A stretch of DNA of 32,000 nucleotides, taken from positions 2,040,001 to 2,072,000 of the forward strand of contig NZ_CP066019.1 of assembly GCF_016127575.1 (NCBI RefSeq), given 5' to 3'. This DNA is from Cupriavidus necator. Its GTDB lineage: Bacteria > Pseudomonadota > Gammaproteobacteria > Burkholderiales > Burkholderiaceae. The stretch's first letter is position 1. Every line of letters begins with the position of its first letter. The translations under genes were made by a program, and so were the position numbers. The notes beneath the pieces are model-generated. The model saw only the letters and a list, made by a program, of their open reading frames with translations, was not told the DNA's origin and made no database searches. This document shows, one piece after another, positions 669 through 25,029 of this stretch.

Positions 669-694
669 CAATTTTCCGGAACGTCCTGTTCCAC
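669..694. promoter_or_regulatory. Candidate operator box CAATTTTCCGGAAC-GTCCT-GTTCCAC (inverted half-sites GGAAC-N5-GTTCC at 678-692), 33-47 nt upstream of the xsc start
   Basis: Perfect 5+5 inverted repeat. 21 of 26 positions are identical to the box at 21167-21192 in the iclR upstream region. It lies in the only AT-richer stretch before xsc. Confidence 0.45.
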
Positions 695-724
695 TTTATA
701 AGACCCTCATCAGGAGACAACGCC

Positions 725-2581: not shown

Positions 2582-2614
2582 TCGAAGTACTGCACACCGC
2601 CAGCTGACGGCGTG

Positions 2615-2642
2615 CTCCCTCTCCCGCTTGCGGGAGAGGGGA
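2615..2642 (+). other. Perfect 12-bp stem / 4-nt loop hairpin (CTCCCTCTCCCG-CTTG-CGGGAGAGGGAG) between xsc and pta
   Basis: Read directly from the sequence; the arms are exact reverse complements. No T-run follows immediately. Confidence 0.7.
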
Positions 2643-2651
2643 GAACACCAA

Positions 2652-2681
2652 GGGCATAGCGCAGGTCGCTGGCCCTTTTTT
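2652..2681 (+). terminator. Possible intrinsic terminator or attenuator inside the xsc-pta operon
   Basis: Imperfect stem GGGCATAGCG/CGCTGGCCC followed by TTTTTT (2675-2681), located 23 nt before the pta start. Confidence 0.4.
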
Positions 2682-2703
2682 CAGTTTTACCGAGCCAACC
2701 ACC

Positions 2704-3738: not shown

Positions 3739-4505
3739 AGGCAGAACTGTTGTTGCCGCTGCTGGGCCTGCAGGCCCTGCTCGGTGCCGGCACCTATTTC
3801 CAGACGGTGACCGGCTTTGGCCTTGGCATGATCGTGATGGGCGTCACCAGCGGACTGGGGCTGGCGCCCGTGGCCACCGTGGCCGCGGTGGTGAGCCTGG
3901 TCACGCTGGCCAACAGCGCCTGCGCGCTGCCAGGCAAGCTGCAGCATATCGACTGGCGCGCCGTCGCCGCGGCAGCCATCGGCATCCTGCCGTCGGTAGT
4001 GGTCGGCGTGCTGGTGCTGGAGTACCTGAGTTCCAGCGCAGCCACCCTGCTGCAACTGCTGCTGGGCGCCGTGATCCTGTATGGCGGCCTCAGCGCCGCA
4101 CTCAAGCCCGCGCCGCTGGCGCAACGCTCCGGCGATGGCACCTTCTTCGTCAGCGGGGTATTCGGCGGACTGCTGAGCGGCATGTTCGGCGTCTCCGGCC
4201 CGCCGCTGATTTTCCAGTTCTACCGCCAGCCGATGAAGCCGGTTGAAATCCGTTGCGCGCTGATCCTGGTCTTTACCGTGACCTCCACCGTGCGCACGCT
4301 GTTCTCGGCCTGGCAGGGGCAGCTCGATGCCGCCGTGTGCGTGCAGGCCGCCATTGCCGTGCCGGTGGTGGTGATCGCCACGTTGCTGGGGCGGCGTTTT
4401 CCGCCGCCGTTCTCGCCGGCCACGACGCGCAGGGTGGCGTTCGGGGTGTTGATCGGGATCGGGGCCAGCCTGATGCTGCCGGCGATTTCGGCGTGGGTGC
4501 TCTAA
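3735..4505 (+). CDS. tauE: TauE/SafE (DUF81) family sulfite exporter
   Basis: 256-aa polytopic membrane protein starting MKAELLLPLLG. Its ATG overlaps the pta stop (ATGA at 3735-3738). The xsc-pta-tauE order matches the described Cupriavidus necator arrangement. The listed ORF 3021..4505 is an artefactual 5' extension. Confidence 0.85.
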   Translation: MKAELLLPLLGLQALLGAGTYFQTVTGFGLGMIVMGVTSGLGLAPVATVAAVVSLVTLANSACALPGKLQHIDWRAVAAAAIGILPSVVVGVLVLEYLSSSAATLLQLLLGAVILYGGLSAALKPAPLAQRSGDGTFFVSGVFGGLLSGMFGVSGPPLIFQFYRQPMKPVEIRCALILVFTVTSTVRTLFSAWQGQLDAAVCVQAAIAVPVVVIATLLGRRFPPPFSPATTRRVAFGVLIGIGASLMLPAISAWVL

Positions 4506-4537: not shown

Positions 4538-5842
4538 TCAGGCGATTGAGCCTGCGGGCTGCGCCAGCGGCGCGGTCTCTTCCTTCTCCCCGCCGCCGCC
4601 CGCCTGCCCCAGGTCCATACCGGTAGTCTCGGGCAGCAGCACCGCGGCGACCACTACCATCGCGTAGCCGACTCCCGCCACGATGGCGATCGCGATCGGC
4701 AGCGAGGTGTGCCCCGTACTCAGCCACCCCACCGACAGCGGGAACAGCGAACCGATCACCCGGCCGGCGTTATACGAAACGCCATACCCCGTTGCCCGGA
4801 TATCGTTGGGATAAGACTCGGAGATGGTCGCGCCGATGCCCGCGAACACGCCCTGCATCAGGATGCCGAGCGGGAAGCCAAGGAACAGCATCGACGTATT
4901 CGACACCGGGATCACCATATAGACCAGCGCGGCCACGAACGCCCCGACCGCAAAGGCGATGTAGGTCAGCCGCCGGCCCCAGCGGTCGGTGGCGTAGGCG
5001 CCCGCCACGTAGCCGATCAGTGAGCCGATAATGGTGACCGCCAGGTAAGAACTGGTGCCGAACACCGACAGGCCGCGCTCGGTCTTGAGGAAGGTCGGCA
5101 ACCACGTGGCGATGGCGTAGTACGCGCCCAGCATCCCGCCCGACAGCAGGCTGCACAACAAGGTCTTGGACAGCAGCGGCCCACGGAACAGCCGGCCCAG
5201 GCCTGCCAGCGCCGCCCCCTGCCGGCCGGCCGCCCGGCTCTTCAGGAAGATTTCCGGCTCTTCCAGGTTGCGGCGCAGGTAGACCACCACCAGCGCCGGC
5301 AGGATGCCGAGGAAGAAGCAGACCCGCCACGCCGTCTCCGCCGGCAGCACGCTGAATGCGATCGCGTACACGATGGCCGCCGCGCCCCAGCCGAAGGAAT
5401 AGCTGCTGGCGGTAAAGCCCGAGTATTTGCCGCGATGGACCGGATTGCGGATCATCTCCGTCACCAGCACCATGCACAGCGACGACTCCCCGCCAAACCC
5501 CAGGCCCTGGATCATGCGGAACAGCATCAGCTGCTCCGGCGACTGCGCCAGCCCGCACAGGAAGCAGGCCCCCGCGAACACCACGATGGTCCAGCGCAGC
5601 ACCCGCACGCGCCCGTAGCGGTCGGCCAGGATGCCGGCCCCGATCGCACCAACCAGCGACGACACCAGCGTCCAGGTGACGATGGCGCCCGCTGTCGACT
5701 TGCTCATGCCCCACTGCCCCAGCAGCGTGGAGATAAGGAACGAATAGATCATGAAGTCGAAGACATCGACCGCATGCCCAAGGAACGCGCCATAGAAGCC
5801 CTTGCGCTCCATGCACGACAAATCACGGAACCAGTCGAACAT
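4538..5842 (-). CDS. MFS transporter (metabolite:H+ symporter type), substrate unknown
   Basis: 434 aa, about 12 hydrophobic segments, MFS loop motif ADRYGRVRVL, GGGAGGG RBS. Lies 33 nt downstream of the amidase gene. Confidence 0.85.
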   Translation of the reverse strand: MFDWFRDLSCMERKGFYGAFLGHAVDVFDFMIYSFLISTLLGQWGMSKSTAGAIVTWTLVSSLVGAIGAGILADRYGRVRVLRWTIVVFAGACFLCGLAQSPEQLMLFRMIQGLGFGGESSLCMVLVTEMIRNPVHRGKYSGFTASSYSFGWGAAAIVYAIAFSVLPAETAWRVCFFLGILPALVVVYLRRNLEEPEIFLKSRAAGRQGAALAGLGRLFRGPLLSKTLLCSLLSGGMLGAYYAIATWLPTFLKTERGLSVFGTSSYLAVTIIGSLIGYVAGAYATDRWGRRLTYIAFAVGAFVAALVYMVIPVSNTSMLFLGFPLGILMQGVFAGIGATISESYPNDIRATGYGVSYNAGRVIGSLFPLSVGWLSTGHTSLPIAIAIVAGVGYAMVVVAAVLLPETTGMDLGQAGGGGEKEETAPLAQPAGSIA

Positions 5843-5875
5843 GATCCCTCCCTGTGGTGTGTGTGGTGTTGTGGC

Positions 5876-7372
5876 TTAGTTGTTGTGATCCGCCGGCAGG
5901 ACAGACGGCCGCGGCGGGGGCCGGAACGCGTAGCCCGCGCCTTCCAGCAGGCTGGCAAAGCGCAGCGCGGTGAGATCCCGGTAGCGGCCGGCGACGATCT
6001 GCACGCCGACCGGCAGGCTACTGGTGCCCGGCCCGATCGGCGCCACCGCTGAAGGCAGCCCGCACAGCCCGGAATGGCCGGCCCAGAACAATTGCGTGGT
6101 CATCGGCTGCGCGCGGCCGTTGACGGTGAGGCTGCGCTGCCAGGGCTGGCCGGCCTCGTCCAGCGCGAAGGCCGTGGTGGCTGCGGCCGGGCACAGCAGC
6201 ACGTCATAGGTGGAGAAGAAGCGCCGCCACGCGGTGGCAAAGCGTTCGCGGGCCACCTGCAGGCGCAGCCAGTCGCGATGCCTCAGGGTCGCGCCGGTGT
6301 ACTGGAGGGTGGCGTAGGCATGGTCGTCCGCGGCGGCTGTGGCGGTGCGGTTCAACGCGTCGGCATAGGCCGCATCGTCCATGTGCACCGCGGTGGTTGC
6401 GCGCAGCAGCGTCACGTAGACGTGCCACAGTTCGGCCGCATCGAAATCCGGCCGCACATGCCAGTCCACGCGCGCGCCCTGCCCGGCCAGCCAGTAGCCC
6501 AGTTTTTCGATCTGCGCGGCAACCTCGCCGTCGGATTCAGCCTGCGCATGGGTGGGCAACACCGCGACGCGGAAGTCGGCCAGCCGTCGGTGCGGACACT
6601 CTGGCAGATCAAGGCGGTAGGGCAGCGCCTCGTCGCCGTGCGGGCCGGCAATGGCGCGCAACACCGGTTCCAGGTCGCGCGCGCTGCGGGCCAAGGGGCC
6701 GGCGACATTGATGTCCTGTTCGCCGAAGCGCGCCGGACCCACCCCGTGGCCTGCCAGCGGCACCAGGCCATGGCTGGGCTTGAGCGAGAAGATGCCGCAG
6801 TAGTGGGCCGGATTGCGCAGCGAGGAGCCGATATCGGAGCCCACATCGAAATATGACAGGCCGGCGCACACCGCCGCCGCGCTGCCGCCGGACGAGCCGC
6901 CCGGCGTGCGCGACGGATCGTGCGGATTGCGGGTGGTGCCGTAGATGGCGTTGTAGCTTTGCCAGTCACGCAGGCCGAGCGGAACGTTGGTCTTGCCGAG
7001 CAGGACGGCGCCGGCATCGCGCAGGCGCTGCACTACCGCGGCGTCGTGCTGGGCCGCACGGCCCTGCATGGCCGGATTGCCGCAAGTGGTCGGCCAGCCG
7101 GCGACGTCGAACGACTCCTTGACCGAGAACGGCACGCCGTCGAGTACCCCGCGCGCTTGCCCTGCCCGGCGCCTTCGGTCGCTTTCCAGCGCCGCGGCGC
7201 GGGCGGCATCGAAATCTGACAGCACCAGCGCATTGATGATGCCGTGCCAGTCGTGCCACGCGGCTTCGCAGCCATCCACCAGTTCTACCGCGGAGACTTC
7301 GCCGGCGGCGAGCCGCTGTGCCACCTCCCACAACGGCGGAAAACCGCCGGGAGCCCGGTCGGACAGGTTCAC
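5876..7372 (-). CDS. Amidase-signature family amidase
   Basis: 498 aa. GGSSGGSAAAV signature and upstream FSVKESFDVAG (catalytic Lys region). GTG start preceded by AAGGAG. Confidence 0.9.
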   Translation of the reverse strand: MNLSDRAPGGFPPLWEVAQRLAAGEVSAVELVDGCEAAWHDWHGIINALVLSDFDAARAAALESDRRRRAGQARGVLDGVPFSVKESFDVAGWPTTCGNPAMQGRAAQHDAAVVQRLRDAGAVLLGKTNVPLGLRDWQSYNAIYGTTRNPHDPSRTPGGSSGGSAAAVCAGLSYFDVGSDIGSSLRNPAHYCGIFSLKPSHGLVPLAGHGVGPARFGEQDINVAGPLARSARDLEPVLRAIAGPHGDEALPYRLDLPECPHRRLADFRVAVLPTHAQAESDGEVAAQIEKLGYWLAGQGARVDWHVRPDFDAAELWHVYVTLLRATTAVHMDDAAYADALNRTATAAADDHAYATLQYTGATLRHRDWLRLQVARERFATAWRRFFSTYDVLLCPAAATTAFALDEAGQPWQRSLTVNGRAQPMTTQLFWAGHSGLCGLPSAVAPIGPGTSSLPVGVQIVAGRYRDLTALRFASLLEGAGYAFRPPPRPSVLPADHNN

Positions 7373-7452
7373 ATCGACTCCTTGTCATTATCCGAGCCGG
7401 CAGCGGCGCGGTGGGGGCGTATAGGACAAGCTTCGGGAAGTGCTGCGAATGC

Positions 7453-7471
7453 GTTGGTATACTATATTCCG
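7453..7471. promoter_or_regulatory. Operator/promoter element GTTGGTATACTATATTCCG upstream of the amidase-MFS unit
   Basis: Exact reverse complement of 14661-14679. Contains the 11-mer GTATACTATAT (7457-7467) also present at 12524-12534. That 11-mer lies 85-95 nt upstream of the GTG start. Confidence 0.55.
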
Positions 7472-7622
7472 TATTGAACGGAGCGCAAGCGAAAGTGTCA
7501 CGCGCGAGCGCGCTGAAGCACGCCAGCAGTGGAAAGCGTAGAAGGTGAATGGTCGGCAGGCAGAACGCCTGCCAGGAGGCAGCGGCGGCGTGCTGACGCC
7601 GCCGGCTCTCAGTCAGGCTGGA

Positions 7623-7799
7623 TCAGCAATGGCCACGGCGTGGGGCGCGGCCGCCCAGCGCCAGGAAGAAGCGGCCGATATCGCGCAGGCGCAGCGGCAG
7701 CAGCGGCGTGGCATGGCGGACGGCATTGCGCGCGGCAAAGTGGTGCAACAGTTGCTGGCCGACGGGTTGCGAAAGATAGCGTTGCTCAGGCGACTGCAT
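7623..7799 (-). CDS. Possible small ORF (58 aa, MQSPEQRYLSQPVGQQLLHHFAARN...), unknown function; below the ORF-track cutoff
   Basis: ATG at 7799, TGA at 7623-7625, high GC3, weak AGGGA RBS, and a GTATAC site at 7831-7836 upstream. The overlapping plus-strand ORF 7545..8051 has similar composition, so coding status is unresolved. Confidence 0.25.
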   Translation of the reverse strand: MQSPEQRYLSQPVGQQLLHHFAARNAVRHATPLLPLRLRDIGRFFLALGGRAPRRGHC

Positions 7800-7938
7800 G
7801 GTAAATCCCTATTGATCTGGAATGCCTACAGTATACCTAAATTGGTGCAATGCGCCATGGCGGCGCATGCAATGCCCAGTTGCCGGGCATGCAACGAAAT
7901 GCTGGAAACGGGAGAGGAAAAACCGGGGCCCAACGCCC

Positions 7939-8646
7939 TCAGGCCGCCTCTGCCCTGCCCTGCCCGTCCACCGGCAAGTCTGCCGCCTTGGCGGCACTGT
8001 AGACATGGCGCGCGGCCAGCAAGGCGGCAAGGTCGGCATCCCCGGCGATGACTGCCTGCAGGATCTGGGCGTGTTCATCCCAGTTCTGACGGGCGCGAAC
8101 CACGTTGGCCGGGCCGAACAGCACCGCGGTGCGCTCGCGCAGCGAACGCATCATTTCCTGCAGCACGCTGTTGGCGGCTATGGTGCCGAGCACCTCATGG
8201 AAGCGGGTATTGAGGGCGAGCAACTCATCCGCGCGGCCCTGGGCGGCGGCATCCATGCCCTGGCGCAGCACGCTCTCCAGCTCAGCAACCAGCGCCGGGT
8301 CGCGGCGCTGCGCGGCGAGCTTGGCGTTGAGCCCTTCCAGCGTCGCGCGCACCTCCACCATCTCGCGCGCGATCACTGGCGACAGGCTGGCAACGGTTGC
8401 GCCGCGGCGCGGCTCGATCACCACCAGGCCCTCGCTGGCCAGCGCGCGCAGCGCCTCGCGCACCGGGATGCGCGACACGCCCAGTTCGGCCGACAGCTTG
8501 TTTTCCACCAGCCGTTCACCTGGCGCGTACTTCCCGTTCAGGATGCCTTCACGCAGCTTGTCGGTGACAAGGGCGAACAGCGGCGAGTGGCTGGCACCGA
8601 GGCTCAGCGGCTCGGCGGGCGCGGCAGGAGATGGAGTGAGAGACAT
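7939..8646 (-). CDS. GntR-family transcriptional regulator, FadR/FCD subfamily
   Basis: 235 aa. wHTH KLSAELGVSRIPVREALRALASEGLVV followed by an all-helical C-terminal domain. Confidence 0.9.
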   Translation of the reverse strand: MSLTPSPAAPAEPLSLGASHSPLFALVTDKLREGILNGKYAPGERLVENKLSAELGVSRIPVREALRALASEGLVVIEPRRGATVASLSPVIAREMVEVRATLEGLNAKLAAQRRDPALVAELESVLRQGMDAAAQGRADELLALNTRFHEVLGTIAANSVLQEMMRSLRERTAVLFGPANVVRARQNWDEHAQILQAVIAGDADLAALLAARHVYSAAKAADLPVDGQGRAEAA

Positions 8647-8683
8647 GGGTCAGCAAAGGCGTAAGCGGAAAGGCTGGCATCAT

Positions 8684-8709
8684 TGTATACCAGCCGTTCC
8701 CTGTATACC
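8684..8709. promoter_or_regulatory. Two direct TGTATACC half-sites (8684-8691, 8702-8709) just upstream of the GntR start
   Basis: Both carry the GTATAC core seen in the other operator candidates. They sit in the 71-nt gap between the reductase stop and the GntR start. Confidence 0.4.
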
Positions 8710-8717
8710 GCCATGTC

Positions 8718-9716
8718 TTAACAATGCTGGAAGGTGAAGCTGTCCGCATAAATGTGATCCGTACTGGCGCCGCTCGCCAGGAAAGCGGTGCGCGCGTCTC
8801 GGATCATATTGGGAGAACCGCACAAATAGATGGCGTGCTCGCTCAGGTCACCCAGGTCAGCCAGCGCCGCATCGTGCACGTAACCGCGCCGTCCTTGCCA
8901 TCCTGCGCCGGCACGGGACAGCACCGGTACGTACTGGAAGTCATACAGCCGCTCGCCCCAGGCGGGGATATCGGAGTGCAGGTACAGGTCTTCCGGCTTC
9001 CGCATGCCCCAGTAGAGCGACACCGGTGGGCAGTCGGGATCGTCCATCAGCGATTCGAGGATGGCCTTGATCGGCGCCAGCCCGGTGCCGGTGGCCACCA
9101 TCAGCAGTGGCCGGTAATCCATGGCGCGGTAGAAGAAGCTACCGAGCGGCAGTTCGACGTCAACGGCGTCGCCCGCTTTCATCTGCGGCAGGATGCCGTC
9201 GGTGAAGGCGCCGCCCGGGATGCGCCGCACATGCAGGTCGACCCGTCCGTCGCGCGGCACCGATGCCATCGAGAAGCTGCGCGCGCGCCCATCCTCGCTC
9301 AATAGCTTCAGGTACTGGCCGGGACGATAGTCGAGCGCACCAGCGTCCGGCACTTCCAGTTCGATATGCAAAACGTCAGCCGACAACGCGCGCACGGCCT
9401 GCACCAGCGCCCGATAACGCGCCGGCTCGGCGCAGGCCTCGTCCTCGCGCGCCGTGCTGATGACCAGGTCGCCCAGCGGCTGCGCCTGGCAGGCCAGCGC
9501 GTAGCCGGCGGCGGCCTCGTCCGGGGCCAGACCGAACGGTTCCTCGTCATACCGCACCTGCCCGGCCAGCAGCCGGATACGGCAGGTGCCGCAGCCGCCC
9601 AGCTGGCAGTCGCGCGGCAAGGCGATACTGGCGCGCCCGGCGGCCTGCAGCAGGGTCTCGCCGCGTTCGACAAAAAAGACCTGCTGCGTTTCGGCGATCT
9701 GGATGCGGTACGACAT
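8718..9716 (-). CDS. [2Fe-2S] ferredoxin-FAD/NAD(P)H oxidoreductase (N-terminal plant-type ferredoxin fused to an FNR module; MmoC/DmpP/BenC/AscD-type architecture)
   Basis: 332 aa from MSYRIQ (GGAGG RBS). CQLGGCGTCRIRL...LACQ cluster motif, RSFSMAS FAD motif, MVATGTGLAPI NAD motif. The listed ORF 8718..10031 is a 5' over-extension across the GlcG gene. Confidence 0.85.
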   Translation of the reverse strand: MSYRIQIAETQQVFFVERGETLLQAAGRASIALPRDCQLGGCGTCRIRLLAGQVRYDEEPFGLAPDEAAAGYALACQAQPLGDLVISTAREDEACAEPARYRALVQAVRALSADVLHIELEVPDAGALDYRPGQYLKLLSEDGRARSFSMASVPRDGRVDLHVRRIPGGAFTDGILPQMKAGDAVDVELPLGSFFYRAMDYRPLLMVATGTGLAPIKAILESLMDDPDCPPVSLYWGMRKPEDLYLHSDIPAWGERLYDFQYVPVLSRAGAGWQGRRGYVHDAALADLGDLSEHAIYLCGSPNMIRDARTAFLASGASTDHIYADSFTFQHC

Positions 9717-9724
9717 GGCGCCTC

Positions 9725-10204
9725 CTACTTCTTGATATCGGCCTGCACCAACACCTTGAGGTCCTGCGGCGCCAGCAGCTCGGCCAGCGCCAGCAGCGCG
9801 GCCAGCCCGGCCTGCGTGTCCTGCTCGCCATTGCCGCCGGACAGGCCGATGCCGCCGATCACCTCGTCGTTGACGACAATCGGGAAGCCGCCCACGAACG
9901 CGGCGAACTTGCCCTCGAAGCTCCACTGGATGCCGAATGCCTCGTTGCCTGGCAGTGCCGGCCCGTTGGGCGGCGTGGTGAACAGGTGCGTGGAGCGCTT
10001 GTGGCCCGCGGCCGTGAAGGCCTTGTTCCATGCGATCTGCGGCCCGGTGATGCGGGCGCCGTCCATGCGCTCGAGCGCGAGCGGATAGCCGCCCTCGTCG
10101 ACCACGCAGATCGACTCCAGCACGCCGATTTCCTCCGAGCGCCGGATCGCGGCTGCAACCATATGGCGCGCCTCGCGCAGTTCCAGCTTGATGGCTTTTT
10201 TCAT
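9725..10204 (-). CDS. GlcG/HbpS-like (DUF336) heme-binding family protein
   Basis: 159 aa from MKKAIKLELREARHMV. GGxPIVVNDEVIGGIGLSGG motif. AGGAG RBS. The listed ORF 9725..11233 is an over-extension into the ALDH gene. Confidence 0.85.
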   Translation of the reverse strand: MKKAIKLELREARHMVAAAIRRSEEIGVLESICVVDEGGYPLALERMDGARITGPQIAWNKAFTAAGHKRSTHLFTTPPNGPALPGNEAFGIQWSFEGKFAAFVGGFPIVVNDEVIGGIGLSGGNGEQDTQAGLAALLALAELLAPQDLKVLVQADIKK

Positions 10205-10233
10205 GTCTCTATGACTCCTTGTGACGGCCGGGC

Positions 10234-11679
10234 TCAGGCGCCGCGGTAGACCGTCTTGACCTGCGTATAGAACTCCAGGCCGGTGCGGCCCGACTCGCGG
10301 AAGGTCGAGGTGCTCGACCGCTTTACCCCGCCAAAGGGCGCGTTGACCAGGTTGCCGGTGGTGGTGCGGTTGACCTTGACCGTGCCCGCCTCGATGTCCG
10401 TGGCGAAGTGGTGGATGTAGCGCGGGTTGCTGGTGACGATGGCCGCCGCCAGGCCGTACTCGGTGTCGTTCGCCTTGGCGATGGCGTCGGCGTAGTCGGT
10501 GAAGCCCAGGATGGCGATCACCGGCCCGAAGACCTCCTCGCGCGCGATCCGCATCTGCTGGGTCACGTCGGTAAACACGGTCGGCGCCACGTAGTAGCCC
10601 TTGTCGAAGTCGCCGCCGGCAAGGCGCGCGCCGCCGCACAGCAACGTCGCCTCGGACTTGCCGATATCGATGTAACGCAGCACCGTTTCCAGCTGCTTGT
10701 GCGACGCCAGCGGCCCGAGGTCCATCCCGGCCGTCATGCCGCTGCCGACCTTGAGGGTGGCGACCTTCGCCAGCAACCGCTCTGTGTATGCCGCCTTGAC
10801 GGACTCGGCCACCAGCACGCGGCTGGTCCCGGTGCACGCCTGCCCCGACAGCGAGAAGCCGCCCTTGATGGTCAGGTCGACGGCGCGGTCGAGGTCGGCG
10901 TCTTCCATCACGATCAGCGGGTTCTTGCCGCCCAGCTCCATCTGCGTGCGCGTGGTCAGCGGCACGGCGCGGTGGATCTGCTCGCCGGCGCGCGACGAGC
11001 CGGTGAACGAGATCGCCCGCACGGCCGGCGCCTCGGTGATGGCAGCGCCGATTTCCGCCGCGCTGCCGGTGATGAAATTCAGCACGCCCTTGGGCAGGCC
11101 GGCCTTGACCAGCGCCTCGGCCAGCCGGTAGCCCGACAGCGGCGCCTCGGACGACGGCTTGAACACTACTGTGTTGCCGGTCACCAGCGCCGGGGCGATC
11201 TTGCGGGCCGGGATCGATACCGGGAAGTTCCACGGCGCGATCACGGTCACCACGCCCAGCGGCTCGCGCTGGCTGTAGACGAGTTGGTCGGGGTCGTCGT
11301 TCGGGAACACCTCGCCGGTGAAGGTCTGCCCTTCCACTGCATAGAAGCGCAGCGTCTGGGCCGAGCGCAGCACCTCGTCGCGGGCCAGCGCCAGCGCCTT
11401 GCCTTCCTCGCGGGTCAGCTCGGCGGCGATGCTATCGGCGTTGGCCTCGAGATGGTCAGCGGCACGGTTGAGGATGGCGGCGCGCTTGCCGACCGGGGTC
11501 TTTTTCCAGCCGGCGAACGCTGCCGCGGCGGCGGCGACGGCCGCCTGCGCGTCCACCGCGGCAGACGCCTGGAAGCGGCCCACAATATCGGCGGTATCAG
11601 CCGGGTTGACGTTATCGAAGGTGCGGCCCGACTGGCAGGCCGTCCATTCGCCGTCGATATGGTTGAGGAATACAGTCAT
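10234..11679 (-). CDS. NAD(P)+-dependent aldehyde dehydrogenase (2,5-dioxovalerate/KGSADH-like subgroup)
   Basis: 481 aa. VIAPWNFP, FTGSSRAG, ELGGKNP and catalytic-Cys region GQACTGTSR. Confidence 0.9.
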   Translation of the reverse strand: MTVFLNHIDGEWTACQSGRTFDNVNPADTADIVGRFQASAAVDAQAAVAAAAAAFAGWKKTPVGKRAAILNRAADHLEANADSIAAELTREEGKALALARDEVLRSAQTLRFYAVEGQTFTGEVFPNDDPDQLVYSQREPLGVVTVIAPWNFPVSIPARKIAPALVTGNTVVFKPSSEAPLSGYRLAEALVKAGLPKGVLNFITGSAAEIGAAITEAPAVRAISFTGSSRAGEQIHRAVPLTTRTQMELGGKNPLIVMEDADLDRAVDLTIKGGFSLSGQACTGTSRVLVAESVKAAYTERLLAKVATLKVGSGMTAGMDLGPLASHKQLETVLRYIDIGKSEATLLCGGARLAGGDFDKGYYVAPTVFTDVTQQMRIAREEVFGPVIAILGFTDYADAIAKANDTEYGLAAAIVTSNPRYIHHFATDIEAGTVKVNRTTTGNLVNAPFGGVKRSSTSTFRESGRTGLEFYTQVKTVYRGA

Positions 11680-11704
11680 CGTCGATCCGGTTGCGCTGCG
11701 GCGC

Positions 11705-12436
11705 TCAGGCCGCCATGTCGAGTTCGGGCAGCGGCAGCTCTTTCTCGACGTAGTCGTGATAGAGCGCCGTCGTGTACAGCAGCCGCATCTGCGCGCCGAT
11801 CTCGCAGATCTTCAGGCAGCGCTGCTGCAGCTCCGGCGTGTTGGCGTGCTCCAGCACGATCTGGTAGCCGCGCTCGCCGTGGATCTCGTCCGAGACGATA
11901 TGCAGGTCGAAGAATTCGACTTCCTCGTCAGTGAACTGGTACTTGTCGCGCAGCGTCGGGGTCTGCTTGCGGTAGATCGACGGCACCTGCGACTCCAGCC
12001 CGACCACCAGCCCGGCTACCGCGACGATGGGGTCTTCACGCATGGCCACGGCGTAGCACCAGCTCTGCAGGCCACGGGTGGTGGGCGACATATTGTCCGG
12101 GTCGATCACGCGCTCGCGGGTGGTGCCGCAGGCTTCGGCGAAGCGGATCAGCAGGTCGGTATGGCGGTCGCCGCCGATCTCTTCCTCATACATATTGGCG
12201 AGCAGGAAATCCTTGGCTTCGGTATAGCGGTCCGGGGTGCGGGCGTAGATGTAGCCCAGGTAATCCGCGAACGGGCCTACGTAGTGATAGTGGTTCTCGG
12301 CCCAGCGTGCGAGATGGGCGCGGGTCAGCTTGCCGCTGGCCCAGGCCACGCTGAACGGCGCCTTGTTGGCGCTCTTGCCTTTGATGGCTTCTTCGAGGGC
12401 GGCACGGAATGCTTCGCGGTTCATCAGTTCGGCCAT
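11705..12436 (-). CDS. TenA/PqqC-family, heme-oxygenase-like fold protein with a complete candidate diiron ligand set (putative HDO-type oxidase)
   Basis: 243 aa. PqqC-like WAENHYHYV. E85-x6-H92, E148, H179-x3-D183-x2-H186. AGGAG RBS. Confidence 0.85.
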   Translation of the reverse strand: MAELMNREAFRAALEEAIKGKSANKAPFSVAWASGKLTRAHLARWAENHYHYVGPFADYLGYIYARTPDRYTEAKDFLLANMYEEEIGGDRHTDLLIRFAEACGTTRERVIDPDNMSPTTRGLQSWCYAVAMREDPIVAVAGLVVGLESQVPSIYRKQTPTLRDKYQFTDEEVEFFDLHIVSDEIHGERGYQIVLEHANTPELQQRCLKICEIGAQMRLLYTTALYHDYVEKELPLPELDMAA

Positions 12437-12514
12437 GGCGGAGGCTCCTGGTTGGCGAGGTGGGGCGATTAAGTGGGTTGGATGCCGGGGTCGCTTCGCA
12501 AATCGATCAGCCCT

Positions 12515-12545
12515 TGCATGGTTGTATACTATATACAGCCATGCA
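12515..12545. promoter_or_regulatory. 31-bp near-perfect palindrome TGCATGGTTGTATACTATATACAGCCATGCA; operator candidate upstream of the oxidase-ALDH-GlcG-reductase unit
   Basis: 13 of 15 arm positions pair. It contains GTATACTATAT (12524-12534), 88-98 nt upstream of the start at 12436. Confidence 0.55.
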
Positions 12546-12612
12546 GCGACGACAAGGGCTTCGTTGACTAATCATGTAAGTGTTTACCCGTCGGTGTCGC
12601 GGGCAATGGCGC

Positions 12613-13545
12613 TCAGGCCGCGCGACGCTCCGCCGCGCCGGCGATGCGGGACCAGGCGAAGCCCGCCAGCGCCACGTCCTCCAGCCCTACGCCGACTGAC
12701 TTGTAGATCACGATGTCGTCGTCCCGCTGGCGCGGCGACACCTTGCCAAGGACCACCTCGCCCAGCTCGACAATCTTCTCGCGCGGAAGAGCCTGCGAAT
12801 CGGCCAGCACGATGTCGCCCGCCTCGCGCACGGACTGCGGGCGCCACTCGACCACCACGGCGGCGGCGCGGCGCAGCGCGGTGTCGTCCAGTTCACGCGT
12901 ATGCGGCAGGCTGGAGCCGATGGCGGCAACGAAAGCGCCAGGCCGGAGCGACGCGCCCGCGAACAGCGGCGTGGTCGCGCGCGACGCCGTGACGACGATA
13001 TCGGCCTCGGCCACGGCAGCATCGGGCTCCGCCAGCGTGACCGGGATGCCGCACAGCGCCGACAGCCGCACCGCCATGCCGGCATCGGCGTGCGGATCGG
13101 ACACCAGGATGCGCGCCAGCCCGAGCGTCTCGCTGAGCTGGCGCGCGTGCTGCACGCCCTGCGTGCCGGCGCCGAACAGCGCCAGCGTGCGCGAGCCGGA
13201 CCGGGCCAGCCGCTGCGCCGCGAGCGTGGTGCAGGCAGCCGTGCGCAGGCGCGTGATGGCGCCAGCGTCGAACGAAGCGAGCGGACGGCCGTCGTCGGTC
13301 GAGAAGATCAGGATGACAAAGGAGAACTGGCCGTTGATGGTGGTGTAGACCTTGGCGCCCGCCACGCCCTGCTGCGGGATCACCGCACCCAGCGTGGACA
13401 GCTTGACGCCGCCCGCCTCGGTGCGAATGCGCTCCTGCATCGCGGCGTCGCCGCGACCGAAGCTGGAAAAAGCGGCTTCCATGACTTGCCGGGCATCGTC
13501 CGGGCTGACGTGGGCATCGATCATCGCGTCTGTAATGTGCTGCAT
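12613..13545 (-). CDS. Ornithine cyclodeaminase / mu-crystallin family NAD(P)-dependent enzyme (cyclodeaminase or ketimine/imine reductase)
   Basis: 310 aa from MQHITDAMID (GGAG RBS). ITRLRTAA and LFGAGTQG Rossmann motif, YKSVGVGLEDV near the C-terminus. The listed ORF 12613..14124 is an over-extension. Confidence 0.85.
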   Translation of the reverse strand: MQHITDAMIDAHVSPDDARQVMEAAFSSFGRGDAAMQERIRTEAGGVKLSTLGAVIPQQGVAGAKVYTTINGQFSFVILIFSTDDGRPLASFDAGAITRLRTAACTTLAAQRLARSGSRTLALFGAGTQGVQHARQLSETLGLARILVSDPHADAGMAVRLSALCGIPVTLAEPDAAVAEADIVVTASRATTPLFAGASLRPGAFVAAIGSSLPHTRELDDTALRRAAAVVVEWRPQSVREAGDIVLADSQALPREKIVELGEVVLGKVSPRQRDDDIVIYKSVGVGLEDVALAGFAWSRIAGAAERRAA

Positions 13546-13604
13546 GGGAACTCCGCTGGTTGGGATGGAGACAGGAAAGACAGTGATCTCTGCGGGCCAG
13601 AGCG

Positions 13605-14405
13605 TCACGAAAAGGCAGTGCGGCCGAGCACACCGAGCGCCCCGGCAGCGCAAAGACCCAGCAGCAGCCGGCGCACCGCCCCGGGCGAGACGTGCCCGCG
13701 CAACCGGTTCGAGAGCGCGAAACCCGCAAACAGGAATGGCGCAAGGGCCGCCGCCAGCACCAGCTGCGGCAAACCGAAGCGCCCCGCCAGCGCCAGCATG
13801 GAGAGCGACAGCACCGCGCCGCCGGCCAGGATGCAACCCATCGTCGCGCGCATCGGCGCCGGCGCCATGTGCTGCATGACCAGCGCGAACGGCGGCGCAC
13901 CGGCCGAGGTGATCGTTCCCATGAAGCCCGACACGGTGCCGGCGATGACCACATTGGGCGAGGTCGGCAGCAGGCGCCAGCCCAGCAGGCTCAGCGCCAC
14001 GGCGGCGAGTATCGACACTGAGAACAGCACCCCCAGCGGCCCCGGCGCCAGCCACGCCATGGTCAGCACCGCTGCCGCCCCGCCAAGCGCGCGCCCGATC
14101 AGGGCGAAGCCTGCGATGCGCCACGCGATCGCCTCCCGCTCACGCAGCGCGCCCATCAAAGAGAGACAGCAGCCCATCGCCAGCAGCGGTCCCGGCACGA
14201 GGTCCGGGAAGAAGATTGCGCCCAGCGGCGCCGAAAGCATCGCGAAGCCGATCCCGCCCACGCCTTGCAGGCAAGCGCCCACCAGGATGAGCGCACCCAT
14301 CCATAGATAAGTGGAGACGGAGAGGCCTGTGGGGAGCAGGGAGTACAACGTGGCGGGCAAGGCAGAGGTCATGGCAGCAAGTCGGGACAGCAGCTTGGAG
14401 GGCAT
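13605..14405 (-). CDS. Second TauE/SafE (DUF81) family anion permease
   Basis: 266 aa, polytopic and glycine-rich, with two-fold repeat organisation like the tauE product at 3735. Start uncertain (alternative ATG 14372); no clear SD for either. Confidence 0.7.
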   Translation of the reverse strand: MPSKLLSRLAAMTSALPATLYSLLPTGLSVSTYLWMGALILVGACLQGVGGIGFAMLSAPLGAIFFPDLVPGPLLAMGCCLSLMGALREREAIAWRIAGFALIGRALGGAAAVLTMAWLAPGPLGVLFSVSILAAVALSLLGWRLLPTSPNVVIAGTVSGFMGTITSAGAPPFALVMQHMAPAPMRATMGCILAGGAVLSLSMLALAGRFGLPQLVLAAALAPFLFAGFALSNRLRGHVSPGAVRRLLLGLCAAGALGVLGRTAFS

Positions 14406-14485
14406 ACGAAGCGGGTTGGAGGGACGGCCTTATGCGGGCATGCCTCCTGCTCATATCGCACTTCGCGAGGAAGCTGCGCTTAACG

Positions 14486-14491
14486 GTATAC
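14486..14491. promoter_or_regulatory. Additional GTATAC core (CGGTATACAG), 81-86 nt upstream of the TauE-like gene start
   Basis: Same hexamer core and similar distance to the start as the other sites. On its own it is weak. Confidence 0.3.
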
Positions 14492-14660
14492 AGTCTACAT
14501 GTCGCGGCGGCGACCTTGCAAATCACTCACCTGTCCGCGCACCACTTGGAGGACGCCACATACCGCCGCAGGCCCAATAAATGTGCGACGTTCGGGCAAC
14601 TTGCACCAGTCTGGGCTAGGCGTAATTCCGGATGAAAAACCTGTTGTCGCGAGATTGCAT

Positions 14661-14679
14661 CGGAATATAGTATACCAAC
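14661..14679. promoter_or_regulatory. Operator/promoter element CGGAATATAGTATACCAAC in the divergent region between the TauE-like gene and the large permease gene
   Basis: Exact reverse complement of 7453-7471. The 11-mer ATATAGTATAC (14665-14675) lies 68-78 nt upstream of the ATG at 14743, in the same orientation relative to the downstream gene as the two other copies. Confidence 0.55.
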
Positions 14680-14742
14680 ACCGGATTCCGAAGCTGAGAG
14701 GGAATCCGGGCCCCACAACCCCTCCGCCCCAAGGGAGTCTTC

Positions 14743-16281
14743 ATGTCACAACAAGTCGTGATCGGTGCCGCGCACTGGATCTATCTGTCAGGGGTAGCAG
14801 TCATCGTGCTGACGATGATCCTGCGCGCCAATGTTGTCGTGCCGTCGATCGTTGGCACCGCCCTGGTCGTGTTTGCGCTTACCGGCAGCCCGGTTTCGGC
14901 GCTGGGCGGGGTGTTTTCCGCGAGCCTGGTTGCCGCCAAGGAGCTGTTCAATATCTTCCTTGTGATCGCGTTCATGACGGCGCTGCTCAATGCGCTCAAA
15001 ACGCTGCGCTCCGACATCCGCATGGTCGAGCCCTTCCGCGTGGTGATGAAGAACGGGCATTCGGCGTTCTTTATCCTGGCGGGCATCACTTACGTCATCT
15101 CGCTGTTCTTCTGGCCAACCCCGGCCGTGCCGCTGGTCTCCGCGATCCTGCTGCCGGCCGCTATCGCGGCGGGGCTGCCGCCGCTGGCGGGCGCGATGGC
15201 CATCGCCATCGCCGGCCAGGGCATGGCGCTGTCATCGGACTATGTGATCGGCGTCGCGCCCGGCATCAGCGCCAAGGCGGCCGGCGCGGCGGTGAGCGCC
15301 GCGGTGGTGGCCGATCGCGCGCTGGCGCTGTCGATCATCACCGGCACGATTGCGCTGTGCCTGGCCTATCTGTCGATGCGCAAGCATATCGTCCCCGCCT
15401 GCGGCACCCTGCTCGACCGCTGGCAGGCGCGCGCCAGCGGCAGCGCCGAGGCGCTGGAAGGCGGCGGTACCTTCGACAAGGCCGAGATCGCCAGGGGCAC
15501 CGCCCACGCCGAGCCGCTGGCCAGCGACAGCAATATCGAGGCAAGCCTGGCGATGGTGGCCCGGCGCCGGGTGAAGTGGTCGAAATGCTTCGCGATCGTA
15601 ACGCCGATTGCTTTCCTCGCAGTGGTCGCCGTCATGGTGCTGCCCAAGCTGGGTACCGGCGTGCAGGACCTCAAGGGCGGCGATGCGGCTGCGCTGGTCG
15701 GCGGCGTCGCGGCGGTGCTGATGATGCTGGCGACGCTGGCCGCGGAAGGCCCGCGCCGCATGCTCGACGTGTGCCCGGAGCACATCACCGACGGCTTTGT
15801 CTTTGCCTTCAAGGCGATGGGCTCGGTGTTGCCGATCGCGGGCTTTTTCTTCGTCGGCGCCGGCGAAACCGCCGCGCAGATCCTGGGCCTGCCGCCGGGC
15901 AAGGCGCCGAGCCTGCTGTTCGAGCTGATCCAGGCCTACCAGCACATGATCCCGGACAACCACGTGCTGGTCGCCTTCGGGGTGCTGCTGGTCGGCATGA
16001 TCACCGGCATCGACGGCTCCGGTTTCGCAGGGCTGCCGCTGACCGGCACGCTGGCCGGCGCGCTCGGCCCGGTGGTCGGCTTCGACCCCGCGACGCTGGC
16101 CGCGGTGGGCCAGATGGGCGCGGTCTGGACCGGCGGCGGCACGCTGGTGGCGTGGTCGTCGCTGATCGCGGTGGCCGGCTTCGCCCGCGTGCCGGTGCTG
16201 GACGCGGTGCGCGCGCTGCTGATCCCGGTGCTGATCGGGCTGGCATGCTCCACCGTCGCCGCGATGGTGTTGTGGTCGTAG
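14743..16281 (+). CDS. Large polytopic permease, probably ion-transporter (IT) superfamily-like (GntP/DcuC/NhaC-type architecture), substrate unknown
   Basis: 512 aa: two hydrophobic halves of about 200 aa separated by a hydrophilic loop of about 80 aa. Related AGLPxL(A/T)G segments occur in both halves. GGGAG RBS. Confidence 0.8.
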   Translation: MSQQVVIGAAHWIYLSGVAVIVLTMILRANVVVPSIVGTALVVFALTGSPVSALGGVFSASLVAAKELFNIFLVIAFMTALLNALKTLRSDIRMVEPFRVVMKNGHSAFFILAGITYVISLFFWPTPAVPLVSAILLPAAIAAGLPPLAGAMAIAIAGQGMALSSDYVIGVAPGISAKAAGAAVSAAVVADRALALSIITGTIALCLAYLSMRKHIVPACGTLLDRWQARASGSAEALEGGGTFDKAEIARGTAHAEPLASDSNIEASLAMVARRRVKWSKCFAIVTPIAFLAVVAVMVLPKLGTGVQDLKGGDAAALVGGVAAVLMMLATLAAEGPRRMLDVCPEHITDGFVFAFKAMGSVLPIAGFFFVGAGETAAQILGLPPGKAPSLLFELIQAYQHMIPDNHVLVAFGVLLVGMITGIDGSGFAGLPLTGTLAGALGPVVGFDPATLAAVGQMGAVWTGGGTLVAWSSLIAVAGFARVPVLDAVRALLIPVLIGLACSTVAAMVLWS

Positions 16282-16363
16282 GCGGCCGCAAGCAACAGCC
16301 AGGCCCCTCCGATTTTTTCGACAATTCATGAGGCCGGGCGGCCAGCCCGGCAGGAACCGCGCC

Positions 16364-16705
16364 ATGCCGACAGTCACTTTCCACAAGCAGGGCCAGACCT
16401 TCGTCGACGAGGTCAAACCCCAGACCAACCTGGTCGTCCGCGCCGGGATCCGCCAGTTCCCCTACCCCAACCTGCGCTACGAGTGCGGCATGGGCAAGTG
16501 CTCCAAATGCGCCTGCCGCGTGATCGCCGGCGCCGAACACCTGCCGCCGCCCAACTGGAAAGAGAAAAAGCAACTCGGCGAGCGGCTCGAACAGGGCTAC
16601 CGGCTGGCCTGCCAGCTCTGGATCGAGCATGACATCGAACTGGCCCAGGACGACCTGCCCGCCCAGGCGCCTGCCATCGTGGCCACGGCCGGCGCGGATG
16701 TCTGA
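16364..16705 (+). CDS. [2Fe-2S] ferredoxin (small, about 113 aa)
   Basis: MPTVTF start with AGGA 8 nt upstream. CGMGKCSKCAC ... RLACQ. KEKK motif shared with the second ferredoxin. The listed ORF starts earlier, at 16328. Confidence 0.8.
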   Translation: MPTVTFHKQGQTFVDEVKPQTNLVVRAGIRQFPYPNLRYECGMGKCSKCACRVIAGAEHLPPPNWKEKKQLGERLEQGYRLACQLWIEHDIELAQDDLPAQAPAIVATAGADV

Positions 16706-16706
16706 C

Positions 16707-17030
16707 ATGTTCGTCCTTCTCACCAGCCGCCCCGGTCAGTTCCGCACCGAGCCCACCGCGGGCATGACCGCGGTCGAGGCATACGACTACGTCTTCTATG
16801 GCAAGCGCACGGCGCGCTTTGTCATCGCGGAACTGGCCGCCGACACCAAGGTGCGGGTGATGGAAGAAACGCCGCCCGGCATCGTCAACCTGGTGTCGAC
16901 CAAGTTCCTCGACAAGTACGCCACGCTGGAAGCCGCCCGCGTCGCGCTGCGCGAGCTGGCCAGCTTCGGCAGCATGGACATCGCCCTGGTGCCCGCCCCG
17001 GTCGCCATGGCAGGCGCTCCTGACTACTAA
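16707..17030 (+). CDS. Small hypothetical protein (about 107 aa), no family recognised, wedged between two ferredoxin genes
   Basis: High GC3. ATG sits 1 nt after the ferredoxin stop. An alternative ATG at 16698 overlaps that stop by 8 nt. Confidence 0.6.
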   Translation: MFVLLTSRPGQFRTEPTAGMTAVEAYDYVFYGKRTARFVIAELAADTKVRVMEETPPGIVNLVSTKFLDKYATLEAARVALRELASFGSMDIALVPAPVAMAGAPDY

Positions 17031-17056
17031 CGCCTGACCTTCAGTCAATCTTCGCC

Positions 17057-17359
17057 ATGATCCAGATCACCTTCCTCACCAACCACGGCAAGACGGTCAG
17101 CGCGCCCGTCAACAGCAATCTGCTGCGCGTGTCGCTGCGCGAGCAGGGCGGCATCCCTTTCAAGTGCGGGGGCGGCCTGTGCGGCACCTGCAAATGCCGC
17201 ATCGAAAAGGGCCACGAGCATACAGACGCGGTCAAGCCGAAGGAAAAGAAACTGCTGACCGAGGAGGAGCTGGCGACGGGGTTCCGGCTGGCCTGCCAGA
17301 CTTTTATCGATGGGGATATCGCGGTGTCATGGCAGCCCAGGGAGACGATGCGCGGGTGA
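17057..17359 (+). CDS. [2Fe-2S] ferredoxin (100 aa), paralog of 16364..16705
   Basis: CGGGLCGTCKC ... RLACQ and KEKK motif, with the same C-x4-C-x2-C-x-C ... C spacing as the first copy. Confidence 0.85.
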   Translation: MIQITFLTNHGKTVSAPVNSNLLRVSLREQGGIPFKCGGGLCGTCKCRIEKGHEHTDAVKPKEKKLLTEEELATGFRLACQTFIDGDIAVSWQPRETMRG

Positions 17360-22830: not shown

Positions 22831-22906
22831 TGACTGACCATGACTGACGTGGCGCGCCGGTGCGGTATGCTGGCGCGCTTCGCCGTCTAGGCAACGCCCC
22901 TGCCCC

Positions 22907-25014: not shown

Positions 25015-25029
25015 CCGAGGAGACGCGCC

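Follow-up and report, generated by a model that had tools for sequence, protein, structure and literature searches.

The DNA considered here is a 32-kb stretch of the genome of Cupriavidus necator (NCBI RefSeq assembly GCF_016127575.1, contig NZ_CP066019.1, positions 2,040,001 to 2,072,000 of the forward strand), called the window below and always taken at its full length. Between positions 4538 and 17359 it carries a block of genes coding for a heme-oxygenase-like diiron protein (HDO), an aldehyde dehydrogenase (ALDH), a GlcG/HbpS-like protein, a Fdx-FNR reductase, two plant-type ferredoxins separated by a cysteine-free protein of ~105 aa, a 512-aa permease and a GntR/FCD regulator, together with an amidase, an MFS transporter, an OCD/mu-crystallin enzyme, a DUF81/TauE-SafE permease and a small open reading frame (ORF) of 58 aa (Table 1). 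Genes were called in the window (guanine-plus-cytosine content, GC, ~68%) by codon-position GC, with which the map is consistent throughout, and families were assigned via Pfam and NCBIfam; an Rfam scan of the window gave no match. The original prediction, made from the sequence alone, had described a catabolic block of four transcription units next to genes for sulfoacetaldehyde processing. All the genes it named are in place and its four units stand, but it had overlooked the GntR/FCD regulator and the 58-aa ORF, and the small unknown ORF that it did list has the extent given in Table 1, starting with MFVLL. Its view that the gene set fits no described pathway held in the libraries and literature searched, where searches aimed at the module and at its locus tags found no description of it.

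The units of the block share an operator. Its strict form, T.GTATAC.A, occurs four times in the window, as against 0.06 expected, and stands 83 nt upstream of the amidase gene, 37 nt upstream of that of the GntR/FCD protein, 86 nt upstream of that of the HDO and 66 nt upstream of that of the 512-aa permease. The hexamer GTATAC is found seven times in the window (0.9 expected); all seven copies are intergenic and within the block, at least one of them preceding each transcription unit, and none was found in the window near xsc (promoter region, 413-724) or near the genes located beyond 17359. Ahead of the HDO and permease genes stand two promoter-like elements of identical sequence, each with its -10 hexamer overlapped by the operator, and ahead of the amidase gene the operator is included in an 18-nt stretch, CGGAATATAGTATACCAAC, identical in the amidase promoter and in the permease promoter (14661-14678). 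The DUF81 gene is co-regulated with the HDO module, with a box 81 nt upstream in the window and operator sites in six loci of the comparison described below. A palindromic GT...AC operator is thus enriched upstream of the member operons as well as of the regulator gene, as belongs to a GntR/FCD regulon, and the GntR/FCD protein is presumably the repressor of the block. It follows from this distribution that the block is, with high probability, a single regulon or module. The grouping made in the original prediction is thereby borne out, since the edges of the block match the span of an operator present nowhere else in the window; this same span places the amidase-MFS unit inside the regulon and the xsc-pta-tauE genes outside.

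Table 1. Genes and regulatory elements of the block and of the adjoining sulfoacetaldehyde operon (positions in the window).
Feature	Position	Strand	Family match or remark
xsc	725-2581	+	TIGR03457, 1086 bits
pta	2704-3738	+	flanking sulfoacetaldehyde operon
tauE	3735-4505	+	flanking sulfoacetaldehyde operon
MFS transporter	4538-5842	-	PF07690, 148 bits; last gene of amidase unit; accessory
Amidase-signature amidase	5876-7372	-	PF01425, 288 bits; NF004816, 732 bits (cut-off 503); accessory
Operator TGGTATACTA	7455-7464		ahead of amidase, inside 18-nt stretch identical to permease promoter
58-aa small ORF	7623-7799	-	conserved
GTATAC box	7831-7836		32 nt upstream of 58-aa ORF
GntR/FCD regulator	7939-8646	-	PF00392 and PF07729
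GTATAC boxes, two	8683-8692 and 8703-8708		upstream of GntR gene
Fdx-FNR reductase	8718-9716	-	Fer2, FAD_binding_6 and NAD_binding_1; N-terminal plant-type [2Fe-2S] domain
GlcG/HbpS-like (DUF336) protein	9725-10204	-	PF03928, 109 bits
NAD(P)+ aldehyde dehydrogenase	10234-11679	-	PF00171, 557 bits
Heme-oxygenase-like diiron protein (PqqC/CADD-like)	11705-12436	-	PF14518, 127 bits
Promoter-like TTGTCG-16-TATAGT with overlapping operator TAGTATACAA	12522-12555	-	86 nt upstream of HDO
OCD/mu-crystallin enzyme	12613-13545	-	PF02423, 146 bits; accessory
DUF81/TauE-SafE permease	13605-14405	-	PF01925, 57.6 bits (cut-off 32.6); accessory
GTATAC box	14486-14491		81 nt upstream of DUF81
Promoter-like TTGTCG-16-TATAGT with overlapping operator TAGTATACCA	14644-14677	+	66 nt upstream of permease
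512-aa permease	14743-16281	+	predicted IT superfamily, from structure model
Ferredoxin A, plant-type [2Fe-2S]	16364-16705	+	PF00111; Cys pattern C-x4-C-x2-C...C
Cys-free ~105-aa protein	16707-17030	+	start MFVLL; start codon 1 nt past ferredoxin A stop
Ferredoxin B, plant-type [2Fe-2S]	17057-17359	+	PF00111, 55.5 bits

The comparison set comprises 87 related loci from some 18 genus-level groups of Alpha-, Beta- and Gammaproteobacteria, 80 of which came from a scan of a genome collection and the remainder from contig and plasmid look-ups. Genes were called in all of them by the method used for the window, proteins were clustered, and flanks of 10 kb were inspected. Over the 88 sequences made of these loci and the window (1.6 Mb), 90 strict sites were counted where our estimate from base composition is ~3.6, and 86 of the 90 are intergenic. 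Almost all of these precede module genes, with sites upstream of the genes for the HDO (42), GntR (24), the permease (19), the amidase (8), DUF81 (6), ferredoxin (6) and OCD (4), and among the 414 GTATAC hexamers of the set of loci 328 adjoin module genes. In two Bradyrhizobium loci (L068 and L075, positions ~650-3700) the same GTATAC boxes precede a cluster in which a VanA-like Rieske oxygenase and a VanB-like reductase surround a paralogue of the module GntR. A single type of operator may serve this GntR family at several operons for oxygenases. The reductase found near the Bradyrhizobium module is part of this VanA/VanB-like cluster with its paralogous GntR, and was rejected as a module component for that reason.

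The co-occurrence of the genes, proposed as a check in the original prediction, is a fact: the gene set recurs over many genera. Besides the HDO, present in all 87 loci, the core consists of the ferredoxins (81), GlcG (78), ALDH (73), GntR (70), the ~105-aa protein (67, to which gene fusions must be added), the reductase (64) and the 512-aa permease (61). Gene order is shuffled from genus to genus and membership is constant. As cases in point, Skermanella has a single operon (permease-HDO-ferredoxin-small protein-ferredoxin-ALDH-GlcG-reductase) with a divergent GntR-OCD-TauE unit; in Ramlibacter (L024) the order is reductase-gamma-glutamyltranspeptidase (GGT)-OCD-ferredoxin-(small protein-ferredoxin)-DUF81-HDO-ALDH-GlcG, with DUF81 inside the operon; and a lineage of Acetobacteraceae displays a minimal form, GntR-HDO-ferredoxin-small protein-ferredoxin-GlcG. 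The module is self-contained, has a repressor gene of its own and is found in many soil and clinical proteobacteria, including Cupriavidus, Paraburkholderia, Pandoraea, Achromobacter, Bordetella, Bradyrhizobium, Methylocella and Azospirillum, among others. One might consider that unrelated operons have been juxtaposed by chance, as the units are on both strands and the accessory content differs by genus. Yet the operator is common to the units and restricted to the block, the amidase and permease promoters share 18 identical nucleotides, and the core is constant over three proteobacterial classes despite its reordering. Conserved synteny and a common operator put the grouping beyond chance, and we give the chance explanation practically no credit.

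Some individual loci depart from the usual layout. Cupriavidus basilensis KF708 and Cupriavidus sp. 30B13 (L022 and L029) have two HDO genes and two genes for 512-aa permeases arranged back to back, one HDO going with ALDH-GlcG-reductase and the other with ferredoxin-small protein-ferredoxin, each HDO gene having its own operator. On the second replicon of Cupriavidus metallidurans CH34 (L088, 160263-178955) the module comes without DUF81, amidase and MFS, and its HDO aligns only to residues 1-231 of that of the window, which suggests a divergent or truncated C-terminus.

Around the core, accessory genes vary. The DUF81 permease is present in 37 of the 87 loci (5 genera), OCD in 31 (5 genera), the MFS transporter, paired with the amidase, in 29 (4 genera), the amidase in 27 (5 genera), an alpha/beta hydrolase (family f15) in 16 (4 genera), a TctC binding protein in 12 (4 genera), an M20 amidohydrolase in 8 (2 genera), GGT in 7 (4 genera) and an aspartate dehydrogenase, identified at 379 bits for a cut-off of 253, in 3 (3 genera). 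Further hydrolases found beside or within the module are a second alpha/beta hydrolase (f44, 4 loci), an Amidohydro_3 protein and a creatininase-family enzyme. The 58-aa ORF (MQSPEQRYLSQPVGQQLLHHFAARNAVRHATPLLP...) is located between the amidase and GntR genes, where the sequence looks empty at first sight. Its motif GQQLL.H[FY]A.R[DN]AVRHATPL recurs in Cupriavidus (13 of 22 loci) and in Achromobacter (18 of 21 loci), the ORF being divergent and upstream of HDO in the latter genus, and the conserved peptide is overlaid by synonymous third-position changes, which suggests that it is translated.

In the window, 32 bp separate the end of tauE from the convergent MFS gene, and it had been proposed that the block makes sulfoacetaldehyde from an organosulfonate or amine with an amide or imine linkage, to be funnelled into the adjacent Xsc-Pta-TauE pathway (for the roles of TauE and Xsc, see PMC5320631). 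As xsc falls beyond the 10-kb flank, pta and tauE were used as its markers. One or both of them stand beside the block in seven of loci L001 to L009, all in the C. necator clade, and neither was found within 10 kb in the other ~78 loci, which include Cupriavidus gilardii, C. basilensis, C. metallidurans, Paraburkholderia, Pandoraea, Achromobacter, Bordetella, Bradyrhizobium, Methylocella, Azospirillum, Skermanella, Billgrantia and Acetobacteraceae. The adjacency to xsc is a peculiarity of one Cupriavidus lineage. To be sure, block and xsc operon are contiguous in the window and in its clade, the block has a DUF81 protein of its own, and amidase and oxygenase belong to one regulon, all of which would suit a funnel into Xsc. 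Against it, the adjacency is confined to a single clade among ~18 genus groups, the xsc promoter region has no operator, and Xsc requires an aldehyde, sulfoacetaldehyde, which the ALDH of the block would consume to give an acid. Furthermore, the Xsc operon already has its TauE, only 22% identical to the DUF81 protein of the block, and the idea of an amide- or imine-linked sulfonate rests on amidase, OCD and DUF81, that is, on accessories (27, 31 and 37 of the 87 loci). Such a funnel seems to us distinctly unlikely. Control by TauR was considered and rejected, the TauR motif CTGGACYTAA not being enriched in the window (20 matches for 15.4 expected).

The HDO is the hallmark of the module. It belongs to the HDO superfamily (PF14518, 127 bits for a cut-off of 28.9; PF03070, 49 bits), and the closest solved structures by sequence are the CADD-type 4-aminobenzoate (pABA) synthases (E = 8e-18 to 1e-15), followed by PqqC. 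The set of three histidines and three carboxylates is intact (E85, H92, E148, H179, D183, H186), each residue aligning with its CADD counterpart (E81, H88, E142, H174, D178, H181), so that the protein is predicted to be competent for a diiron centre. This kinship, and the fact that databases call the protein 'pyrroloquinoline-quinone synthase' or 'TenA family', might suggest an enzyme of cofactor biosynthesis or salvage (PqqC, CADD-type pABA synthase or TenA) with unrelated neighbours. However, the HDO scores 53.6 bits with the PqqC model (TIGR02111, cut-off 240) and 95 bits with the CADD model (TIGR04305, cut-off 200). The sacrificial Tyr27 of CADD, retained in both solved pABA synthases, is replaced by Ser29, and CADD Lys152 by Gln158. 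No pqq genes were found in the window or in the loci, and genuine pqqC genes, ~26% identical to the HDO, adjoin pqqB. With scores this far below the cut-offs and both residues replaced, the protein is a member of the superfamily that is neither CADD nor PqqC, and as it is embedded in a substrate-type regulon with permease, ALDH and repressor, a role in cofactor synthesis is very improbable. Indeed, the database names of the distinctive members of the module ('PqqC', 'TenA regulator', 'aldehyde dehydrogenase', 'ferredoxin', 'hypothetical') are either generic or wrong.

The HDO is also exceptionally conserved. Among 1388 homologues the top 120, from Paraburkholderia, Achromobacter, Bordetella, a halomonad and Acetobacteraceae, are all 85-91% identical to it. 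Across classes, identity is 86-94% for the HDO and 50-82% for its neighbours. In loci outside Cupriavidus, the median identity with the window protein is 89% for the HDO, 82% for GlcG, 75% for ferredoxin A, 73% for ALDH, 72% for the permease, 71% for ferredoxin B, 58% for the reductase, 57% for GntR and 51% for the small protein. The divergence of the partners is normal, so that a recent transfer of the cluster as a whole does not account for the identity of the HDO, and we infer that it reflects an exceptional constraint on this protein alone. An identity so far above that of its partners points to unusually tight constraints, either mechanistic or on protein-protein contacts. When a library is clustered at 50% identity, a single cluster takes in all the full-length orthologues, and the full-length relatives that come next are 49%, then 39% or less, identical; a look for informative extra domains in distant relatives found only a TPR domain.

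Several of the partners would suit an electron-transfer chain. The reductase has the architecture of BenC, AntC and MmoC (BenC model, 197 bits, below cut-off), and a Fer2-FAD-NAD reductase and a small [2Fe-2S] ferredoxin are encoded with the oxygenase, as in multicomponent systems, in 64 and 81 of the 87 loci respectively. The ~105-aa protein, which NCBI names a 'ferredoxin', does not deserve that name, having no cysteine at all. It has no match in Pfam, in NCBIfam or, by sequence, in the PDB; its AlphaFold model (pLDDT 87) is rich in beta strands with one helix, and Foldseek retrieved from the PDB nothing better than an E-value of 0.15, with TM-scores of 0.35 or less. In Pandoraea and Ramlibacter it is fused to ferredoxin B, which argues that it docks a ferredoxin. 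The solved relatives of the GlcG-like protein include PduO-C, the formaldehyde sensor EfgA and NahX. For the ALDH, the nearest NCBIfam models are alpha-ketoglutaric semialdehyde and 2,5-dioxovalerate dehydrogenase (560 and 547 bits, below the cut-offs of 770 and 750), and the nearest solved structures are betaine aldehyde dehydrogenases. The 512-aa permease, 'hypothetical' in every source, has no Pfam, NCBIfam or PDB sequence match. Its AlphaFold model (pLDDT 70) resembles a model of MleN, VcINDY, the TRAP transporters IseQM and SiaQM, AbgT/YdaH, NaS1 and ArsB, a set that includes transporters of dicarboxylate, sulfate, isethionate, sialate and aminobenzoyl-glutamate. The label 'IT-like' given to it at the outset fits this model, which would place it in the elevator-type anion transporter fold class of the IT superfamily, in a family not yet described.

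As for the accessory proteins, the MFS transporter comes closest, below cut-off, to the NCBIfam subfamilies of aromatic-acid/H+ and sialate symporters, and the closest solved relatives of the amidase are ClbL and the metagenomic UMG-SP urethanases. The OCD protein is below cut-off for all NCBIfam models and only remotely like ketimine reductase, pyrroline-2-carboxylate reductase and iminosuccinate reductase; it matches PDB 3hdj ('probable ornithine cyclodeaminase', functionally unassigned) at 396 bits (E = 9.5e-118). As this match far exceeds those with characterised enzymes of the family, the structure of a close relative, possibly an orthologue, exists; the enzyme itself would be an accessory imine reductase or cyclodeaminase. 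The second DUF81 permease singled out in the original prediction is of that family, but an accessory rather than a core member. It is presumed to export an anion, and with 22% identity over 100 residues it is not a recent paralogue of the TauE encoded in the window.

How could these proteins work together? In the scenario that we propose, electrons would flow from NAD(P)H to the BenC-type reductase, then to the plant-type [2Fe-2S] ferredoxin or ferredoxins and to the diiron site of the HDO, with the cysteine-free ~105-aa protein as an adaptor in the transfer. The reduced diiron centre would activate O2 and hydroxylate a carbon adjacent to a heteroatom in a small anionic substrate imported by the IT-type permease. 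Collapse of the hydroxylated product would set free a leaving group and yield an aldehyde, which the ALDH would turn into an acid. The ALDH being near-universal in the module, hydroxylation beside a heteroatom followed by collapse is the simplest chemistry. The GlcG-like protein may be a partner of the oxygenase or a factor handling the aldehyde. Amide hydrolases (the amidase with its MFS transporter here; an alpha/beta hydrolase, GGT, an M20 or a creatininase-family enzyme elsewhere) could free the substrate from conjugates or, alternatively, take off an acyl or a formyl group. Depending on the lineage, the module would be supplemented with an exporter (DUF81 here, MFS elsewhere) and with an enzyme of the imine reductase or amino-acid dehydrogenase kind, which is OCD in the window and aspartate dehydrogenase or Ldh_2 in other loci. 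The occurrence of three unrelated imine or amino-acid dehydrogenases suggests that the intermediate in some lineages is an imine or an amino acid.

Several points weigh against this scenario. We know of no HDO shown to use a dedicated reductase and ferredoxins, and for this reason the electron chain is deduced from gene linkage alone. Many HDOs are N-oxygenases or enzymes cleaving C-C bonds, so that hydroxylation is one option only. The operon of Acetobacteraceae is devoid of ALDH, reductase and permease, and loci of the Bradyrhizobium type have no module-specific reductase within 10 kb. All in all, we incline, by no great measure, to see the HDO as a multicomponent monooxygenase making an aldehyde. 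For this reading and the regulon taken together we regard the case as evenly poised, setting aside the possible involvement of a sulfonate.

If there is a leaving group, sulfite, hence a sulfonate substrate, is the leading single candidate, a tentative one that we would not call probable. Several hints go in this direction: a DUF81 orthologue within the module in 5 genera; 10 Achromobacter loci in which the module has genes for SorA (690 bits, cut-off 600) and SorB as neighbours; the xsc operon, with pta and tauE, adjacent in the C. necator clade; and an importer that its model predicts to be of anion type. In Achromobacter, the SorA and SorB genes (NCBIfam equivalogs, above cut-off) lie ~1 kb upstream of HDO with an MFS_3 transporter; SorA is intact in L026, L041, L045, L048, L051, L057, L062, L064 and L070, and its gene call is split in L039. 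Other facts weigh against sulfite. DUF81 is missing in 50 of the 87 loci and in 13 of the ~18 genus groups, and a DHA2-type MFS transporter replaces it beside OCD in Paraburkholderia and Caballeronia. Several Achromobacter species have no SorAB at the module, and inclusion of SorAB in the regulon finds no support where they do, since an oppositely oriented gene lies between SorAB and the small ORF and HDO. The xsc gene is outside the regulon. Finally, OCD, aspartate dehydrogenase, RidA with Ldh_2, and the amide hydrolases suggest nitrogen chemistry, which simple desulfonation does not explain. It is doubtful that the HDO, run as a true multicomponent monooxygenase by the reductase, the two ferredoxins and an adaptor of novel fold, cleaves the C-S bond of a small natural sulfonate into sulfite and an aldehyde. 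If it did, it would stand for a class of oxygenase not recognised before, and soil and opportunistic proteobacteria would have a widespread way of cycling the carbon and sulfur of organosulfonates that does without TauD, SsuD, Msm and Xsc.

The same module could instead be devoted to a sulfur-free nitrogen substrate, such as a secondary or N-methyl amine, an amino acid derivative or an N-heterocyclic carboxylate. In that case the reaction of the HDO would be an oxidative N-dealkylation, a deamination or a ring cleavage, with the ALDH acting on the aldehyde so formed. Hydrolases of the amidase or formamidase type would strip off an acyl or a formyl group, an imine would be dealt with by OCD, aspartate dehydrogenase or RidA, and DUF81 or MFS would transport a different anion. 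Hydrolases of six families do recur beside or within the module, and the operator precedes amidase, GGT and creatininase-family genes; OCD, aspartate dehydrogenase and Ldh_2 with RidA, which are non-homologous, occupy equivalent places. The closest solved relatives of the ALDH use amino- and betaine aldehydes, a formaldehyde-binding protein is found among the relatives of GlcG, and known HDOs (SznF, BesC, HrmI/BelK, RohS) act mostly on amines and amino acids. Such a substrate leaves unexplained, however, the recurrent DUF81 orthologue and two separate neighbourhoods with sulfite genes; the nitrogen-handling genes are all accessory and missing from many loci, and the fold of the permease, which indicates an anion, is silent about nitrogen. 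We consider this account about as probable as that of a sulfonate substrate, which leaves it on the improbable side. Taurine, homotaurine, isethionate, methanesulfonate, homocysteate and cysteate are not told apart by the present data, nor are N-methyl amino acids, canavanine, pABA-glutamate and N-heterocycles, and we claim none of them as the substrate.

Beyond 17359, the remainder of the window carries genes unrelated to the block, among them CobT/CobS-like genes and one for an IclR regulator. The CobT-like (vWA) and CobS-like (AAA/MoxR) pair (17446-20180, minus strand, with a 4-nt overlap at 19164-19167) is accompanied by no further cobalamin genes in the window and has the block as a neighbour in the C. 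necator clade alone; the IclR regulator follows at 20229-21074. The region 21394-26475 codes for a GABA-permease-like APC transporter, a divergent MocR/GabR-type pyridoxal phosphate-dependent regulator, a SnoaL-like small protein and a DAO-family FAD oxidoreductase, a layout reminiscent of regulons of the TauR-GabP-TauXY type (PMC5320631). Finally, 27430-32000 carries an AraC-type regulator, then a three-subunit molybdoenzyme of the xanthine dehydrogenase family (2Fe-2S subunit, 28850-29317; FAD subunit, 29314-30291; molybdopterin subunit from 30288, running past the end of the window).

Comparison with known systems helps to delineate what is original in the module. The HDO shares with CADD (CT610) the seven-helix fold family (PF14518/PF03070) and its six metal ligands, but CADD works alone in folate synthesis whereas the present protein belongs to a repressor-controlled operon with ferredoxins, reductase, ALDH and permease. 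PqqC, of the same fold superfamily and the source of the name given to the HDO in many databases, is metal-free and encoded within pqqABCDE. UndA, BesC, SznF, HrmI/BelK and RohS have a diiron site in a heme-oxygenase-like scaffold and carry out O2-dependent chemistry on small molecules, as proposed for the HDO; none is close to it in sequence, its next full-length relatives, at 49% identity or less, being unannotated. To our knowledge, the characterised HDO oxygenases are all biosynthetic and none has dedicated ferredoxins or a reductase encoded alongside. Multicomponent monooxygenases and Rieske systems (MmoC, BenC) likewise combine an NAD(P)H-dependent Fer2-FAD-NAD reductase, [2Fe-2S] ferredoxins and a small accessory protein with a terminal oxygenase of the diiron kind, followed by an ALDH. 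Their terminal oxygenase, however, is ferritin-like or of the Rieske type, while that of the module has the HDO fold, so that the module is not a member of that family, and the MmoB and DmpM effectors have no structural similarity to the ~105-aa protein. Desulfonation systems (TauD, SsuD and Msm; TauE, SafE, CuyZ and SuyZ; SafD) have in common with the module a DUF81 permease beside an oxygenase and an ALDH, but the HDO has no homology to TauD, SsuD or MsmA, and DUF81 is missing in most lineages of the module.

As far as we know, HDO enzymes have been met almost only in the biosynthesis of natural products and cofactors, and their physiological electron donors are mostly unknown. With respect to these known HDOs, the novelty of the module would lie in a catabolic setting and in a dedicated multicomponent electron chain. 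Identification of the substrate would define a new catabolic pathway, and at the same time assign functions to the 512-aa permease, to the ~105-aa protein, to this subgroup of GlcG proteins and to the OCD subgroup represented by PDB 3hdj. With its operator and promoters at hand, the question is directly testable in C. necator, a genetically tractable organism.

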